Source: Escherichia coli (GTDB lineage: Bacteria > Pseudomonadota > Gammaproteobacteria > Enterobacterales > Enterobacteriaceae). Taken from it: a DNA stretch of 15,366 nucleotides. Under the pieces are notes generated by a model. The model saw only the letters and a list, made by a program, of their open reading frames with translations, had not been told where the DNA came from and made no database searches. Of this stretch, positions 1 to 5,242 are shown piece by piece. Every line of letters starts with the position of its first letter. Within the stretch, counting starts at the first letter, position 1. Location: NCBI RefSeq assembly GCF_003334315.1, contig NZ_QOWR01000075.1. One strand, written 5' to 3'. Made by a program: the position numbers and the translations under genes.

Positions 1-105
1 ATTATATCGAATGTGATTACAATCGGTGGCGGCGGCACAGTTGGTGTGGCGGCCTCAGTCCGGAACAATTTGAAAACAAGAACCTCGCTTAGGCCTGTGT
101 CCATA

Positions 106-483
106 TTACGTGGGTAGGATCAGATCAGGAACAGCTTTAACAGTAGCTTCTTGTTGTGTCTTGGCTTCTTGTCTAGCTTCTTCTTGTGGAATATCTACCA
201 CTTGATAGACATTAGAACTTCCTGGTCGTGCATCTTTTATAATTAACCCCATTTCGAGCAATTTCTTAACCCTTTCCTCTGCTGCTCTTGGTGTTATGCC
301 AAAAACATCGCCTATCTTAGCGTAAGAGGGAAATGCACGATCAAACCCTTTCAGATAGCAGTAAAGATTTTTAGCACTATCTGTAAATTTATGCCCGTTT
401 ACTTGGCTTATTTTTAGAATCCACATAGGAACTTTTACAAATTGTTCTTCATTAATCATTAAAAATCTCCTTGATGTAATCAC
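106..483 (-). CDS. HTH_36-like winged-helix DNA-binding protein, 125 aa (putative replication-initiator-like or regulatory protein of the element)
   Basis: ORF MITSRRFLMINEEQFVKVPMWILK...; the central segment SAKNLYCYLKGFDRAFPSYAKIGDVFGITPRAAEERVKKLLEMGLI has the pattern I associate with the HTH_36 family found in phage/plasmid Rep-like proteins. Strong RBS: the minus strand reads AAGGAGA about 7 nt before the ATG. Last gene of a tightly packed three-gene operon. Confidence 0.55.
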   Translation of the reverse strand: MITSRRFLMINEEQFVKVPMWILKISQVNGHKFTDSAKNLYCYLKGFDRAFPSYAKIGDVFGITPRAAEERVKKLLEMGLIIKDARPGSSNVYQVVDIPQEEARQEAKTQQEATVKAVPDLILPT

Positions 484-512
484 GCTCTATGGCGCTACTA
501 TGGTGATAAAAA

Positions 513-683
513 TCACTTGCTTTTATTTGAGAGTGTTTCAGCCTCTCTTTTCAACATATCAAGAATGTAATCTGTGACAGTGATACGTCTACTTCTGGCT
601 TCTTTAAATAACACCTGAAATACTTCATCAGGAATATGAAAGCAAGTGCGTGGTTGTCTTTTCTTTTCTGTAGTTTCGCTCAT
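513..683 (-). CDS. Small ribbon-helix-helix-like (CopG/Arc-type) protein, 56 aa; absent from the supplied ORF track (below length cutoff)
   Basis: Hand translation of the minus strand: MSETTEKKRQPRTCFHIPDEVFQVLFKEARSRRITVTDYILDMLKREAETLSNKSK, stop TGA (complement at 513-515). The pattern basic N-terminus, beta-strand (TCFHIPDEV), helix (FQVLFKEARSRR), helix (ITVTDYILDMLK) is RHH-like. Strong RBS AAGGAG 6 nt upstream; 19-nt gap to the upstream gene and 29-nt gap to the downstream gene. Confidence 0.35.
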   Translation of the reverse strand: MSETTEKKRQPRTCFHIPDEVFQVLFKEARSRRITVTDYILDMLKREAETLSNKSK

Positions 684-702
684 AGTTTTCTCCTTCTATT
701 CT

Positions 703-891
703 TTACTCTGTTTCAGATTCTTTTTCATTTTTTCTTAATTCATCAATAATCTTGAGTGCTTCATTGAAGCAAGCTGCTCGCTCTGGATAACCTCGACTCC
801 TTGCCATATTACGATTCATTACTATTTGGTGGCGTGTAAGCTCACCTTTTTTAAATGCCGCGACAACGTGTTCCGATGTGAACCATTTCAT
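703..891 (-). CDS. Hypothetical small protein, 62 aa; first gene of the three-gene operon
   Basis: ORF MKWFTSEHVVAAFKKGELTRHQIVMNRNMARSRGYPERAACFNEALKIIDELRKNEKESETE with a strong RBS (minus strand TAAGGAGTTTTTT then ATG). I do not recognise a family. Confidence 0.4.
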   Translation of the reverse strand: MKWFTSEHVVAAFKKGELTRHQIVMNRNMARSRGYPERAACFNEALKIIDELRKNEKESETE

Positions 892-1122
892 AAAAAACTC
901 CTTATTCAGTTAAAAGAAAAACACCTTGCAAGCCTGACGGCTTCAAAGTGCATTGATTTTGATTATTTAGAGAAGAATGTTTTTCTGTCCCTCTAATACC
1001 TATTATTACATATAAAGAAACATTTGTCAATACCTTTTCACAAAAAATCTGATCTTTTTCATGTACTTACATTTTTTCTTAGCAATTCGTGCTCTTCTGT
1101 GTAGTGCTATTCTTCCTTATTG

Positions 1123-1145
1123 TCTAAAACGCTCTAAAACGCGTT
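1123..1145. repeat. Tandem 10-bp direct repeat tctaaaacgc x2 running into the palindrome AACGCGTT
   Basis: Seen directly: tctaaaacgc at 1123-1132 and 1133-1142, followed by a degenerate third unit (gttctaacga). Lies in the non-coding region upstream of the minus-strand operon. Confidence 0.4.
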
Positions 1146-1461
1146 CTAACGAGGTTTTGATAAAAGCAATACATTCCCTTATGTAATGGCTGTTTAGCTC
1201 GCCAGAGGCTTATTTAAGGGGCTTATTTTGTATTTGTTAGGTATATGAAAAGGTGATGGTAGATATAAGATAGAGAGTCACTTTATAAAACGCTCTGTAA
1301 AGCCCTGTAGTGAGTTTATATATGTAGGCAATGCGTTTCCATTCCCTACCCTGCTTAATGCTGTTAGAGAAGCATTTAGACCCCTTATTTTTAATTACCT
1401 AAAGTATCCTCTATACATTCCTGTTATGAAACACCTCTGAATCCTTCATAAAACACATTAT

Positions 1462-1517
1462 GACGCAAAGAACACTTTTCTAAGGTGATTCCCTTCCTGA
1501 ATGCTGTTTCTTGCGTC
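1462..1517. repeat. Imperfect inverted repeat, 13-nt arms (gacgcaaagaaca ... tgtttcttgcgtc), 30-nt spacer
   Basis: Seen directly; 11 of 13 positions are complementary. Possible operator or RNA hairpin. Confidence 0.4.
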
Positions 1518-1560
1518 AAAGAGCTACACAGAGCTTATAAAGCTATTATTAATAATAAAG

Positions 1561-1620
1561 TAGACAAAGTAAGTAAGATAAGTAAGTAAGATAACTAAGA
1601 TAGATAAGATTAATAAGATC
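1561..1620. repeat. Degenerate AT-rich short tandem repeat (aagtaag / ataagat units)
   Basis: Seen directly: aagtaagataagtaagtaagataactaagatagataagattaataagatc. Confidence 0.6.
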
Positions 1621-1630
1621 AGAATTCTCT

Positions 1631-1660
1631 TTCGGTGTCGCCTCTGGCTTTTCCACCGAA
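1631..1660. other. Hairpin-forming inverted repeat ttcggtg-N16-caccgaa
   Basis: Seen directly: 7-bp perfect arms with a T-rich loop (tcgcctctggcttttc), located just before the first 42-bp direct repeat. Confidence 0.35.
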
Positions 1661-1663
1661 AAC

Positions 1664-1828
1664 AATTACACAACTACAGAGAATAACGAGAGTTATTAAA
1701 TGTAGAAAGTGGAATTGTATTGAGGCTTAGTGAAATTACACGAGGAAAGCAGAGTGTAATTGAGCTTTAGCCGCTCTCTCTTCGAGTAATTACACAACTA
1801 CAGAGAATAACAGAGTTATTAAATGTAG
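1664..1828. repeat. Pair of 41/42-bp direct repeats (aattacacaactacagagaataac(g)agagttattaaatgtag) about 124 bp apart
   Basis: Seen directly: copy 1 at 1664-1705, copy 2 at 1788-1828, differing by a single g indel. Each contains the short palindrome aataac...gttatt and is followed by similar sequence (gaaagtggaatt / gagggtaatt). Confidence 0.7.
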
Positions 1829-1917
1829 GAGGGTAATTAAGAGTTAGAGAGAGTTAACACATAAGCAATCAGTATGATTGGTTAGGTGATTACTCTTCTG
1901 CGCACAGCGCAATAGTA

Positions 1918-1960
1918 TTTCTTCGTGGGCGTTACCGCCAACGATAGTTACACGAAGAAA
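1918..1960. other. Strong stem-loop: 10-bp perfect inverted repeat tttcttcgtg / cacgaagaaa enclosing a nested ggcg-ttac-cgcc hairpin, within a locally GC-richer segment (about 1860-2075); candidate structured RNA or protein-binding site
   Basis: Seen directly. The 75-codon minus-strand ORF over this segment has no obvious RBS or protein-like composition, so I favour a structural element over a CDS. Confidence 0.4.
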
Positions 1961-2128
1961 GTAACGCTTTGCTTTCGGTGTGAGCGGAACGGGCCAGCCA
2001 CGAAGCCCAAAGGTAGCGGAGTAAGGCTGCTTGCCAGAGAGTGAAGCTAACGCCGGAAGGCAAAAGATCATATAAATAAATATATAATATTATAATTTAA
2101 TAAGTAATTTAATAAATGATCTAATAGG

Positions 2129-2262
2129 TAACAGAATTCTGTGGGGGTGTCTAACAGTTTTCTGTGGGGGTGTCTAACAGAATTCTGTTAGGGTGGGGTA
2201 ACAGAATTTTGTTAGGGTAAAAATCTCTTTAAAAGTTAAGATTAACAGAATTCTGTGGGGGG
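2129..2262. repeat. Repeat family A: palindrome (t)AACAGAATTCTGT(T) followed by G-runs (gtggggg); direct repeat ctgtgggggtgtctaacag x2
   Basis: Seen directly: copies starting near 2129, 2176, 2199 (degenerate, aattttgtt) and 2243, with a fifth at 2538. ACAGAATTCTGT is a perfect 12-bp palindrome, a likely dimeric DNA-binding-protein site. Confidence 0.7.
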
Positions 2263-2325
2263 TAGCTCACAGTGACCTACCCCCTAGTTCACTATGACCT
2301 ACCCCCCTAGGTCACAGTGACCTAT
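2263..2325. repeat. Iteron cluster 1 (family B): three roughly 21-bp units tag(c/t)tcac(a/t)(g/a)tgacctacccc; the third is the perfect palindrome AGGTCACAGTGACCT
   Basis: Seen directly: 2263-2284, 2285-2307 and 2307-2325; the palindrome is at 2309-2323. Confidence 0.7.
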
Positions 2326-2349
2326 ATAGTATAAAGAATATTATTTATA

Positions 2350-2377
2350 TTATTTAATTATAGTATTTAATTATAGT
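2350..2377. repeat. AT-rich 13-bp tandem repeat (atttaattatagt x2) in a roughly 50-bp A+T tract; candidate DNA-unwinding element
   Basis: Seen directly, lying between iteron families B and C. Iterons next to an AT-rich tract is the classical origin layout. Confidence 0.45.
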
Positions 2378-2385
2378 ATTGGTGG

Positions 2386-2483
2386 AACTCATTTCCTAGG
2401 TAGGTAGGAACTAATTTCCTAAGTAGGTAGGAAACCACTTCCTAGGTTACTTCCTAAATAGATCGGAAATCATTTCCTAGGTG
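2386..2483. repeat. Repeat family C: (a/c)tttcctagg(taggtagga) units at roughly 22-bp spacing (4-5 copies); contains the palindrome CCTAGG
   Basis: Seen directly: tttcctagg at 2392, tttcctaag at 2414, cttcctagg at 2438, cttcctaaa at 2451, tttcctagg at 2473. Confidence 0.6.
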
Positions 2484-2498
2484 TTATTTATACTTATC

Positions 2499-2535
2499 GG
2501 GTATCAGTTTTGATAGGGGTATCAGACTTGATAGG
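2499..2535. repeat. Repeat family D: gggtatcag(tt/ac)ttgatag x2 in tandem, 19-bp period
   Basis: Seen directly at 2499-2516 and 2517/2518-2535. Confidence 0.6.
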
Positions 2536-2556
2536 GGTAACAGAATTCTGTGGGGG

Positions 2557-2618
2557 TAGTTCACTATGACCTACCCCTAGTTCACTGTGAGCTACCCCTA
2601 GTTCACTGTGAGCTACCG
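2557..2618. repeat. Iteron cluster 2 (family B): three head-to-tail 21-bp units tagttcac(t)(a/g)tga(c/g)ctacc(cc)
   Basis: Seen directly: 2557-2577, 2578-2598 and 2599-2618, with exact 21-bp periodicity (two helical turns), as expected for Rep-binding iterons. Confidence 0.75.
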
Positions 2619-2712
2619 TTACATCCAATCATCTGTCGATGTAACATATCGTTACTACCAACTTTCTTACAAAGAGCATTTCAGATAGCTGAATGTAACC
2701 TCTCGTTACATC
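2617..2712. repeat. Palindrome-rich block: gttacatc-N12-gatgtaac, gtaac-atatc-gttac, and cgttacatcc repeated (2617 and 2703)
   Basis: Seen directly. Confidence 0.5.
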
Positions 2713-2729
2713 CATTTGTCACATAGCAC

Positions 2730-3210
2730 TCTGTGTAATGCCTTTCTATGTGTGTGCCATAATCCCCCTATATTCCCTGTGTAAATCATAGAATAATGCT
2801 CTCTATTCCCTGTGTAATTCCCTACTAAAAATCAATGAAAAAGTAGCTTAAAGTTGCAATTCTTACTTTCTTCACTTTTACATCACTTTCGCAAAGCCTT
2901 GTGTAATGCGGCTTACAGAGCACCATCAGAAATTGTTGGCTAAAAATTATTCTGCTTGTTTCTGAACGAGTTTTCTCGTTTGTGCAAATTTTAAAATTTA
3001 TTTTGTTTTTACAGCCTTATTTCGTGTAATGCGTGGCATAGCAAGCCCTTTTCTTGTGTTGTCAAGACATTTGGCAACGTTCAAACATCTGTTTAGAAAT
3101 GCCAAATTGTTGATCTAACAAATAAACCTGTATAAACAGAACACCATTTAATCTATTCCCCTGTGTATCCATTAGGCATACCAAATGAATACAGCTAAAT
3201 CGTGTAATAT
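2730..3210. repeat. Dispersed motif (c)tgtgtaat(g) recurring about 7 times, including the direct repeat tattccctgtgtaa x2 (2770-2818)
   Basis: Seen directly near 2733, 2779, 2811, 2901, 3026, 3161 (variant tgtgtatcc) and 3203. The region is non-coding and leads up to the recombinase gene. Confidence 0.45.
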
Positions 3211-3262
3211 TCCGTACCCATAAGGCTTGAAACAGACCAAATGAATACGGTATACTCATTTG
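3169..3262. promoter_or_regulatory. Putative res/hix-like recombinase binding region: duplicated motif cat(t/a)aggc..accaaatgaatac(a/g)g plus the palindrome caaatga-N11-tcatttg
   Basis: Seen directly: copy 1 at 3169-3194, copy 2 at 3217-3250, palindrome at 3238-3262 with the palindromic core gtatac. The location immediately 5' of a resolvase-family gene is where res sites sit in Tn3-family and plasmid resolution systems. Confidence 0.4.
3227..3256 (+). promoter_or_regulatory. Putative sigma70 promoter of the recombinase gene (-35 TTGAAA, 18-bp spacer, -10 TATACT)
   Basis: -35 at 3227-3232, -10 at 3251-3256, about 45 nt upstream of the ATG at 3302. The -10 lies inside the palindrome, which would suggest autoregulation. 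Sequence-pattern inference only. Confidence 0.35.
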
Positions 3263-3301
3263 CATTTAAGTAGTGCCAAATCGACACATTAAGAGGATTT
3301 T

Positions 3302-3841
3302 ATGAGCAATATCGGTTATAAGCGTGTGAGCACTGTAGATCAGAACACTGATCGCCAGCTTGCAGGAGTAACTCTCGATAAAGTCTTTGAAGATAAGCTG
3401 TCTGGTAAAGACACTAACCGCCCAGGCTTACAAGCGTGTTTAGCCTATCTGAGAGAAGGCGACACCTTACACGTGCACTCTCTCGACCGTTTAGGACGTA
3501 ACACCTTAGACATCCTTGCTTTAGTTGAACAACTTAATAATCGAGGTGTAATTGTTCGATTTCACAAAGAAGGAATCATTGCAGACATTACAAGCGCGAT
3601 GGGAAAGATGATGCTTACGATGTTGTCGGCAGTTGCAACGTGTGAACGTGAACTGATGTTAGAACGTAAACGAGAAGCGCAAGCCGTCAATCCTACAAAA
3701 CGTGGTAATGGAAAAGCAGTGGATCGAGAAGGTATAAAGAAAGCCCTTTCTGATGGCCTGTCAGTGCGTAAAACCGCCGAGAGCTTTAATGTTGCTCCTT
3801 CAACGGTGCAACGTATCAAGAAGGAAGAAGAGGAGGCGTAA
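3302..3841 (+). CDS. Small serine recombinase (resolvase/invertase family), 179 aa
   Basis: N-terminal GYKRVSTVDQ is the catalytic-serine motif of serine recombinases. Conserved blocks FEDKLSG, RPGL, LDRLGR and SAVATCERELMLER resemble the Tn3 TnpR, Gin and Hin layout. A C-terminal HTH is present (LSVRKTAESFNVAPSTVQRIKK). RBS AAGAGGA lies 5 nt upstream. Not identical to the Pin or Gin sequences I recall. Confidence 0.85.
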   Translation: MSNIGYKRVSTVDQNTDRQLAGVTLDKVFEDKLSGKDTNRPGLQACLAYLREGDTLHVHSLDRLGRNTLDILALVEQLNNRGVIVRFHKEGIIADITSAMGKMMLTMLSAVATCERELMLERKREAQAVNPTKRGNGKAVDREGIKKALSDGLSVRKTAESFNVAPSTVQRIKKEEEEA

Positions 3842-4407: not shown

Positions 4408-4560
4408 TCAATCCTTAAGCCATTTCAACTCACTAAGGAGTTTTCTTTCTTCGTTCTCTCGTTGCTTTCGCTCTAGCCAGGCTTTTCCCTCTGGCGTAGA
4501 CAGGAACTTACGAGCGTGAATCTTGCGGTTATTACGTTTTATAGCTGCAATGTTTTTCAT
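4408..4560 (-). CDS. Small basic protein, 50 aa, hypothetical; absent from the ORF track
   Basis: Hand translation of the minus strand: MKNIAAIKRNNRKIHARKFLSTPEGKAWLERKQRENEERKLLSELKWLKD, stop TGA (complement at 4408-4410). A possible RBS (AGAGG) lies upstream. I do not recognise a family. Confidence 0.3.
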   Translation of the reverse strand: MKNIAAIKRNNRKIHARKFLSTPEGKAWLERKQRENEERKLLSELKWLKD

Positions 4561-5166
4561 CGTGTTGCCTCTGTATTCATATGAAAATTAACAAGTTACA
4601 TACTACACAGGGAGACTACGCATAAAACACAATACAAGTAAAGATACATTTTCAAGACAATAGGAGCCATAAAGCGCCTTTGATGGTTATACCAAAAAAT
4701 AAGCGCCGTAGGCGTATCCACTAAAAAGGGCTTTTTCACAAAAGCTATGAAGTCTTAGCAGTTCTTCTCTTATCAGGCACCCGTTGTACTCCGGTGGACG
4801 AAACCGTGCTAGAGCTTGATTCTTTCCCGATCAAGTTAGGTTTTGAAGAGGTGGGCTTTAATCCACTATTGCACTTAAAACTCTTCCCATCATTTAGCCT
4901 GTTTATCCTCTGCAACGTCTCACGACGTGTAGCATCATTGGACACCGCGCCAGGTGTGGAACATCTTGCTAAGAGTTTTGGTAGAAGGTTTAGAGACGGT
5001 GGCACGTCTTCCAGCTTCAAAGGAACTTGTTACGAGGTTGAGCCTGGGAACTACTCGCCCATACGTGTTACACTACCAAAGCCCATAACAACGTATAGGC
5101 GTTTGTAAGTGATAACAGAAGATACAATTTCTTAGAGAAGTTAAGCTAAGTTATTGATTTTCTTGA

Positions 5167-5242
5167 TGGTGCCGATAATAGGAGTCGAACCTACGACCTT
5201 CGCATTACGAATGCGCTGCTCTACCAACTGAGCTATATCGGC
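5167..5242 (-). tRNA. thrW: tRNA-Thr (anticodon CGU), thrW-like
   Basis: The minus strand reads GCCGATATAGCTCAGTTGGTAGAGCAGCGCATTCGTAATGCGAAGGTCGTAGGTTCGACTCCTATTATCGGCACCA: cloverleaf features, anticodon loop TTCGTAA, encoded CCA. It sits downstream of proA as in E. coli. Confidence 0.95.

Follow-up and report, generated by a model that had tools for sequence, protein, structure and literature searches.

What kind of genetic element do three small, closely spaced genes on an Escherichia coli contig (NZ_QOWR01000075.1) belong to, and what would they do for it? The genes lie on the minus strand at positions 106-891 of a stretch of 15,366 nucleotides (nt), which we call the window. A sequence-only reading made beforehand had described them as a compact, strongly translated three-gene operon for small DNA-binding proteins, akin to plasmid copy-control or phage-satellite control modules. 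We now consider it likely that window 123-1030, on the minus strand, is the promoter-proximal end of a single long operon that belongs to a phage-satellite-like island of about 12 kb inserted at thrW. The earlier interpretation proved largely right but incomplete, as it missed the truncation of the third gene by an insertion sequence (IS) of the IS3 family, the greater length of the operon, and a terminator in its leader.

Three genes at the head of a longer operon

All three minus-strand open reading frames (ORFs) that had been proposed are present. Gene 1 (703-891, minus strand) encodes a basic three-helix protein of 62 amino acids (aa), which belongs to an orphan family restricted to this family of islands; gene 2 (513-683, minus strand) encodes a 56-aa ribbon-helix-helix (RHH) protein in the form that we call allele A; and gene 3 (106-459, minus strand) is a truncated rep gene of 117 aa, whose native bases, 459-123, hold a complete winged-helix HTH_36 domain. 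As had been stated, the ribosome-binding sequence AAGGAG stands ahead of each gene. It is found at 898-903, 690-695 and 467-472 on the minus strand, which places it 6, 6 and 7 nt upstream of the ATG codons at 891, 683 and 459, respectively. The arrangement AAGGAG-N6-ATG occurs at two sites in the window, those of genes 1 and 2, against a chance expectation of 0.13. The gap of 19 nt between genes 1 and 2 was given correctly before, but that between genes 2 and 3 is 53 nt and not 29 nt. The third protein likewise is not the 125-aa product proposed but an IS3-cut fragment of 117 aa that starts at ATG 459. The ORF 106-483 does yield 125 aa when read from GTG 483. By comparison with relatives, however, that start is an ORF-caller artefact and ATG 459 is the true one, because AAGGAG sits within the longer ORF, downstream of the GTG, because the equivalent of GTG 483 is thrown out of frame by a 2-nt indel in allele-B relatives, and because the Rep homologues of every relative start with MIN... 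after AAGGAG.

Judged by their pattern of divergence, all three ORFs are genuine coding sequences under purifying selection, since the ratio of non-synonymous to synonymous divergence (dN/dS) is well below 1 in each of them. Pairwise values against relatives were 0.06-0.30 for gene 1; for gene 2 they were 0.06-0.24 within the allele and 0.08 against Enterobacter, where synonymous sites are saturated; and the N-terminal part of gene 3 showed, among close relatives, 0 non-synonymous against 1-3 synonymous changes. The sequence-only reading had expected conservation as coding sequence, and the synonymous bias was indeed seen in all three genes. The ORFs are short, two of them belong to no database family and the domain matches of the third are weak, all of which might recall chance frames in AT-rich island DNA. 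This is hardly credible, as the synonymous-biased divergence already refutes it, and ribosome-binding sites and synteny kept across genera, together with confident structure models, stand against it as well.

The copy in the window is damaged. Positions 1-122 are the terminal 122 nt of an IS3-family IS, whose inverted repeat TGATCCTACCCACG... runs inward from base 122, and they interrupt rep. An 'IS3-like element IS3 family transposase' that matches window 1-125 at 100% identity occurs in 3590 E. coli genomes, and similarity to related islands begins at base 123. The final 5 codons of gene 3 (LILPT) and its stop are supplied by the IS3 end, with the L codon straddling the 122/123 junction. Of a gene for 217-218 aa only the first 112 codons are left; residues ~112 to 217 of Rep, including the ...DFDIPF tip, are lost. 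Because IS3 took away the C-terminal half of Rep, the replicon in the window is very probably dead, and at most a DNA-binding stub could be made from it. Taken by itself, the locus is an ordinary dead small replicon; its importance lies in its family. The window begins within IS3, and only the tRNA-proximal 5 kb of the island lies inside it. This island DNA, with a G+C content of 36-44%, runs from window position 1 to ~5166 and ends at the tRNA-Thr(CGU) gene (5167-5242, minus strand), the integration site. Beyond it proA, proB, phoE and onward follow; the ORFs there match E. coli proA, proB, phoE, crl, frsA, gpt and pepD at ~97% identity.

Intact relatives are ~12 kb long and share the order tyrosine integrase, Dit-like gene, gene for a 609-aa tape-measure-like protein (phrog_16051, 2.6e-53), Phage_cap_E capsid gene, six small genes, Rep, RHH, gene 1, 2-2.4 kb of non-coding DNA, small recombinase, and tRNA. 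From gene 1 through the Dit-like gene all lie on one strand with short gaps, and the strand continues unbroken past the trio into about nine more genes, the major capsid gene among them. By this arrangement the trio heads an operon of about 12 genes and is not the self-contained three-gene operon that had been assumed. The order gene 1-gene 2-Rep was found in all 18 IMG/VR loci that reach far enough upstream, and it is also kept in E. coli at thrW and tRNA-Gly, and in Enterobacter. In a distant member, locus L030, the gene order is the same though the identity of its gene 1 to that of the window is low. The leader together with gene 1 was found in 707 of 5426 complete E. coli genomes, at 808 places, of which 807 are chromosomal and one is on a plasmid. 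The integration site is thrW in strain GPEC128-620 (locus L001) and tRNA-Gly in strain ST70 (locus L002, NZ_CP102244), and the Enterobacter island adjoins the trp operon, between yciO and rluB-like genes. Family members are annotated merely as 'hypothetical protein' or 'transcriptional regulator'. At thrW of GPEC128-620 (L001 1-5600), the island stands in tandem with the island of vat, which encodes a vacuolating autotransporter toxin, and with a remnant integrase.

Of the two settings that the sequence-only reading had named, the phage satellite is the one that agrees with the context, in which genes for an integrase, a capsid protein, a tape-measure-like protein and a Dit-like protein are found together at a tRNA. 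The element is small and integrated, has an integrase and a tRNA site, and carries a partial set of virion genes, as expected of a satellite; no portal, terminase, protease or sheath/tube genes were annotated or detected in intact relatives. A plasmid-type copy-control replicon, made of an RHH repressor and Rep and sitting on an integrated plasmid or a generic island independent of phages, would account for the order of RHH and rep, for the iterons described below and for the resolvase-like recombinase; one of the 808 places is on a plasmid, and the helper phage is so far hypothetical. We nevertheless regard such an origin as unlikely. The other 807 copies are chromosomal, those examined adjoin tRNA genes or other chromosomal loci and have the tyrosine integrase gene at their opposite end, and the same operon runs on into the capsid, tape-measure-like and Dit-like genes. 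Moreover, 18 such loci are found in IMG/VR, and virulent phages share segments that are 95-100% identical. The island resembles the phage-inducible chromosomal islands (PICIs) and capsid-forming PICIs (cf-PICIs) in its small size, the integrase at one end, a replication module, phage morphogenesis genes and commonness in E. coli. Unlike them, it has no detected or annotated Stl-like repressor, AlpA, pri-rep, terminase small subunit, portal or protease, and its structural genes are limited to the Phage_cap_E capsid, tape-measure-like and Dit-like genes. Relatives' annotation, PHROG scans and precomputed Pfam hits agreed in giving no Stl-like master repressor, AlpA, pri-rep, or terS/full capsid module. 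From its gene content the island would be a phage satellite, with a putative dependence on a helper for which the sole evidence is the indirect one of DNA, 95-100% identical, shared with four virulent phages.

Gene 3 as a predicted replication initiator

The third protein had been called HTH_36-like and Rep-like, and both descriptions held. Pfam places HTH_36 at residues 26-73 (E=3.2e-4), and the Rep-like character is supported by matches to PHROG initiator families at 5e-8 to 8e-11 and by covariation with iterons. The fragment in the window matches PHROGs 270, 391 and 8540 at 5e-8 to 5e-6, and the full-length protein reaches 7.6e-11; all five Rep alleles have matches among the replication-initiator and O-like families of PHROGs. 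Intact homologues have a length of 217-218 aa. Their N-terminal domain falls into types I (that of the window) to V, and the C-terminal region has several divergent forms. Comparison of 25 loci revealed that the trio is a mosaic, in which RHH alleles, Rep N-terminal types and C-terminal forms assort largely independently.

Upstream of the operon lie tandem repeats of 18-23 nt that adjoin AT-rich tracts. In the window, the presumed origin region (2070-2720, no strand assigned) contains AT-rich tracts at 2070-2131 and 2338-2380 and four families of iterons. F1 (TAACAGAATTCTGTGGGGGTGTC, with the core ACAGAATTCTGT), at 2129-2265 and 2538-2560, is the family that matches the window's own Rep type I, and its 23-nt array at 2129-2221 abuts the AT-rich tract 2093-2131. 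F2 (2259-2328 and 2553-2619; 6 copies) is the family of Rep type II elsewhere, F3 (2384-2482; 3-4 copies) that of Rep type III elsewhere, and F4 (2499-2544; 2.6 copies) goes with other Rep alleles. At least 3 copies of F1 were present in all 11 type-I loci and 0-2 copies in the 13 other loci, a tally to be discounted insofar as the loci are phylogenetically related and 11 of 11 overstates the number of independent events. No type-II locus lacked F2, and the sole type-III locus had F3. The ST70 locus L002, whose trio is 98.6% identical to that of the window, contains an AT-rich tract and 3.9 copies of F1 only, a layout that is, by its sequence, that of a textbook origin. Because the Rep N-terminal type and the iteron family change together, we take gene 3 for an iteron-binding initiator, and its Rep-like identity is strongly supported by these comparisons. 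The HTH_36 winged helix would bind the F1 iterons through their core, beside the AT-rich tract ~1.2 kb upstream. Composite origins with several arrays are also seen in L001 and L021, whereas ST70 has F1 alone.

A C-terminal feature suggests how such an initiator might act. Intact Rep has an acidic linker and ends in ...YEDFDIPF, and other forms end in ...YDSIPF, ...QSTIPF and ...DEDQCPF; these tips stem from L001 11682-12335 and from the Rep genes of L003, L015 and L030, and the C-terminal regions are otherwise divergent. The C-terminal peptide of SSB, DDDIPF, is a docking site for DnaG, chi, PriA and other proteins (PMC5872125, PMC3632105). By likeness to this peptide, the C-terminal half of Rep with its acidic ...DFDIPF tip may recruit host replisome or primosome proteins to the origin.

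The alternative is that gene 3 encodes a transcription factor, that the trio is a developmental switch of the Cro/CII kind, and that the repeats are operators. HTH_36 and winged helices are known from regulators too, Pfam gives no more than a modest E-value, and the RefSeq label reads 'transcriptional regulator'. We hold this to be quite improbable: the five Rep alleles match replication-initiator PHROGs and not regulator families, the co-varying repeats are 21-23-nt tandem arrays that abut AT-rich tracts, an acidic linker and an SSB-like tail are features of replisome recruitment, and the phage chimeras described below parallel an origin-directed nuclease. As an initiator, Rep finds its best sequence-family match in lambda O and O-like or DnaD-like initiators (PHROGs 270, 391, 428, 678 and 8540). 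It shares with the lambda O type the N-terminal winged helix and the tandem iterons beside an AT-rich tract. In contrast to lambda O, the iterons of the island lie ~1.2 kb upstream in non-coding DNA rather than within the gene, there is no gene for a P-like helicase loader, and the C-terminus has an SSB-Ct-like tip instead of a P-binding domain.

At locus L031, the Rep slot after gene 1 and RHH (1551-2138) is held by an unrelated P-loop protein (GSGKST; phrog_2467), which suggests that the third gene can be exchanged wholesale for an unrelated one.

The ribbon-helix-helix protein, gene 1 and the leader

The AlphaFold2 (AF2) model of gene 2, with a predicted local distance difference test (pLDDT) score of 85, has an extended segment at residues 11-18, to which the monomer model assigns no strand, followed by helices at 19-31 and 36-55. 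Nearly all of its top 50 Foldseek matches in the PDB are RHH proteins, with probabilities of 0.94-0.98 for the leading ones; they include Arc (1par, 0.98), CopG (2cpg/1ea4, 0.96), MazE6, AmrZ and the Sulfolobus plasmid copy-control protein ORF56. Judged by its modelled fold, gene 2 encodes an Arc/CopG-type RHH protein. The RHH-like assignment made earlier is upheld in the fold but not by Pfam, where the search came back empty, and a profile search of the PDB with gene 2 also gave no match.

In pMV158, an RHH protein of the ~45-56-aa class, CopG, is encoded directly upstream of rep on the same transcript as repB. The island resembles this arrangement in that its RHH gene directly precedes rep in one predicted transcript. 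It differs in that Rep is an iteron-binding winged-helix initiator and not a rolling-circle nuclease, in having an extra conserved gene before RHH, in that no antisense RNA was found in the island, and in a promoter that does not co-vary with the RHH allele. By analogy with CopG on repB, gene 2 most likely exerts negative feedback on rep, and a role as repressor in copy control would follow.

The candidate site for such feedback lies in the spacer between genes 2 and 3 (460-512, minus strand), where a tandem repeat, CCATAGTAGCG / CCATAGAGCG, occupies 483-503 inside ATCAC...GTGAT. The doubled motif CCATAG(T)AGCG occurs once in the window (expected 0.04) and is kept from E. coli to Enterobacter despite saturated synonymous sites. 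Folding of the spacer RNA was no better than that of shuffled sequence (z=-0.14). Gene 2 alleles A (that of the window), B and C are swapped between islands as a cassette. In a k-mer association over 19 loci, the DNA that varies with the RHH allele was gene 2 itself and the spacer 3' of it and nothing else; as an operator test this is weak, for alleles A and B hardly differ in the strand residues predicted to face the DNA (R-x-C/Y-x-H). On its likeness to the CopG-RepB arrangement, the repeat at 483-503 is a candidate RHH operator.

The 62-aa product of gene 1, left unassigned before, now has a confident AF2 model, a three-helix bundle, but still no family. No informative structural neighbour was found in the PDB or AlphaFold database (AFDB) fold libraries and no family match in Pfam, PHROGs or NCBIfam, and a profile search over 1.84 billion representatives gave only 31 clusters. 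By these searches gene 1 is an orphan protein specific to the island family, and it is the conserved partner within the trio. A hit to the NCBIfam 'RNA-binding regulator' (E=0.035) was set aside as chance, as it was not recovered in ten homologues, and a PDB profile match near the DNMT1 C-terminus (E=0.23) was not significant. PADLOC returned one weak match for gene 1, PDC-S05 (E=0.005), and nothing for the seven other island proteins scanned.

Since genes 1 and 2 are small, neighbouring and only 19 nt apart, and since antitoxins (MazE6, AtaR, TacA and VapB) are among the fold matches of gene 2, one might see in them a toxin-antitoxin pair with an RHH antitoxin that stabilises the island, with gene 3 as a separate regulator. 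This we rejected as very improbable. The RHH protein, at 56 aa, has no C-terminal toxin-binding extension and is encoded downstream of the supposed toxin; gene 1 matches no toxin family, PDC-S05 being its sole and weak match in PADLOC; and the RHH gene found in phages accompanies rep, not gene 1. A specific pairing of genes 1 and 2 is further disfavoured because one type of gene 1 occurs with all three RHH alleles, A, B and C.

How these genes would be expressed is indicated by the sequence ahead of gene 1. A sigma-70 promoter, TTGACA-17-TGtAATAAT (1002-1030, minus strand), has an extended -10 TG and 11 of 12 matches to the consensus, and its -35 element is identical in all relatives. It is followed by an element resembling an intrinsic terminator (911-951, minus strand), with a 13-bp hairpin at 921-951 and then UUUUUCUUUU; the hairpin lies ~45 nt past the likely transcription start. 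RNAalifold gave 13 pairs in the hairpin, two of which have compensatory double changes in Enterobacter. Locus L019 has a paired deletion in it. Distant members share the layout, one of them, L031, with a different hairpin and U-run at the equivalent position. Because of the compensatory changes, the paired deletion and the replacement hairpin of L031 at the same place, selection, on comparative grounds, maintains a layout in which a promoter, a short terminated leader and the operon follow one another. Transcription would start at the near-consensus promoter at 1030-1002 and meet the conserved terminator at 951-911, ~45-85 nt downstream, so that operon expression presumably depends on read-through, possibly enabled by an infecting phage. 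The earlier description of the module as 'strongly translated' overlooks this terminator, which lies between promoter and gene 1.

Promoter-proximal terminated leaders are known from lambda pR'-tR' and P4. Those leaders and that of the island share a strong, constitutive-looking promoter, an intrinsic terminator within ~90 nt, and a long operon that includes structural genes. The island leader differs in having no phage homology and no identified antiterminator, and the likeness is an analogy only. Hijacking of a Q-type antiterminator at a phage-like late promoter was considered too and, for want of a phage leader homologue, likewise stays an analogy.

Other features of the non-coding region were also noted. 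Rfam, searched with the whole window at the gathering score and with 880-3320 at E<=1, gave only a tRNA and one chance small RNA match. The window contains 13 copies of the heptamer ATTACAC, where 2.2 would be expected; nine of them lie in non-coding DNA (1665-3208) and form two oppositely oriented clusters on either side of the iteron core. This pattern is present in most E. coli islands irrespective of the Rep or RHH allele, and is not in Enterobacter islands. The interval 1500-2070 is a GC-richer, conserved non-coding stretch with two 41-nt direct repeats (1664-1705 and 1788-1828) and no Rfam match, which may be an RNA or a protein-binding region. A 75-aa ORF within it (1844-2071, minus strand) is probably not coding, because it is frameshifted in several relatives.

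Phage-borne pieces of the module and the rest of the island

A tblastn search with Rep against 50,697 phage records matched only four phages (six records), all Stephanstirmvirinae: Mt1B1_P17 and BI-EHEC (Phapecoctavirus), and muut and inny (Justusliebigvirus). Each of these virulent phages encodes a protein of 321-367 aa with two tandem Rep-type domains (I+III, V+III or IV+III) and a further C-terminal domain. The genes, at L026 4001-4987, L027 1180-2397, L028 1161-2484 and L029 1501-2466, are annotated 'hypothetical protein' or not at all. In Mt1B1_P17 the protein, QNJ49226, contains HTH_36 twice (5e-5 and 2.6e-3), one copy sharing 83% identity with Rep type I and the other almost the same as type III, and its C-terminal domain matches phrog_681 'endonuclease' (2.4e-18), Pfam MUG113 (1.2e-3) and T5orf172 (0.16). 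The same architecture is shared by muut, inny and BI-EHEC. In muut and inny, RHH allele B precedes the chimera, with the island ribosome-binding site and spacer in both and a 100% identical protein in muut. Rep type II gave a single weak match, in inny.

The DNA shared by phages and islands is 95-100% identical over 240-720 bp, with a peak of 99-100% over 240-355 bp, and BI-EHEC is 95.7% identical to the window itself. Because the shared segments are this close in DNA, Stephanstirmvirinae phages and islands, by the evidence of their sequences, recombine inside the same cells. The phages would have repeatedly captured DNA segments for RHH and for the Rep DNA-binding domains and fused the latter to a nuclease.

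The closest known counterpart is in Vibrio phage satellites of the PLE type and their phage ICP1, in which Odn, an origin-directed nuclease that mimics PLE RepA, cuts the PLE origin and selects for an exchange of replicons among PLEs (PMC8263062; Barth et al. 2021, eLife). As with PLE RepA and its origin (PMC8263062), the island has an initiator with an N-terminal iteron-binding domain and a non-coding iteron origin that are swapped as a module. As with ICP1 Odn (PMC8263062), a virulent phage carries a chimera of a satellite DNA-binding domain and a nuclease of the T5orf172/GIY-YIG type. By this architecture the phage chimeras are predicted origin-directed nucleases of the Odn kind. The two systems differ in their hosts, the islands being in Escherichia and Enterobacter, in their phages, here Stephanstirmvirinae, and in the domain, HTH_36 instead of RepA_N. 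Unlike Odn, the coliphage proteins contain two different Rep-type domains in tandem, and two of the phages have the RHH gene too. The identity is 42% in protein for Odn, whereas islands and coliphages are 95-100% identical in DNA.

By analogy with PLE and ICP1, the islands of this family probably either parasitise Stephanstirmvirinae phages or serve as a defence against them, and such a conflict would have left its trace in the shuffled alleles of Rep, iterons and RHH. A broader reading is one that we put forward tentatively, at somewhat less than even chances. It holds that the islands, carried by ~13% of complete E. coli genomes, are a widespread and apparently undescribed family of Enterobacteriaceae satellites that encode a capsid and parasitise large virulent Stephanstirmvirinae phages of the phAPEC8/phi92 kind, as counterparts of PLE and ICP1; that the phages answer with origin-directed nucleases of dual specificity, which drive allele shuffling and composite origins; and that the initiator loads the replisome through an SSB-peptide mimic. 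Literature on thrW and satellites, and on Phapecoctavirus or Stephanstirmvirinae and satellites, gave no account of the island family or of the phage chimeras, which does not prove that none exists.

The module displays both hallmarks of the satellite-phage arms race documented so far for PLE and ICP1, namely the swapping of Rep and iterons and the chimeric nucleases of the phages. If the broader reading is true, the islands offer a tractable E. coli model of conflict between a satellite and virulent phages and add an initiator that possibly recruits the replisome by mimicry of the SSB tail. It would also bear on the host range of phAPEC8/phi92-like phages, which are being isolated for use against pathogenic E. 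coli.

Several points weigh on the other side. The capsid protein resembles no coliphage protein, its best matches being in Pseudomonas phages at ~24% identity, and the helper is not inferable from the structural genes because the capsid is no closer than this. The promoter and leader gave only chance AT-rich matches against phage sequences. Tandem Repeats Finder (TRF) found no clear tandem iterons for Rep types IV and V, and the window and L001 hold iteron arrays (F2, F3 and F4) for Rep types that they do not encode. The proposed role of the SSB-like tip depends on one short terminal motif. For gene 2, the lack of a Pfam match is joined by a best PHROG match (Arc-like repressor) of E=0.017; the promoter region is constant across the RHH alleles, and the allele-linked block of gene 2 and spacer could just reflect recombination breakpoints. 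The whole analysis, moreover, is computational.

The remaining genes of the island portion of the window lie towards the tRNA. A 179-aa serine recombinase is encoded at 3302-3841 (plus strand), with res-like direct repeats, CAnACCAAATGAATAC, upstream of it at 3177-3192 and 3233-3248. In the Enterobacter and L030 islands the same slot is occupied by a small tyrosine recombinase (185-205 aa), and this replacement by a non-homologous recombinase suggests a function in multimer resolution or inversion. Between the recombinase gene and the tRNA, a basic ORF of ~50 aa (MKNIAAIKRNNRKIHARKF...) lies at 4411-4569 on the minus strand; its counterpart in relatives (L001 16133-16291) carries the label hypothetical.

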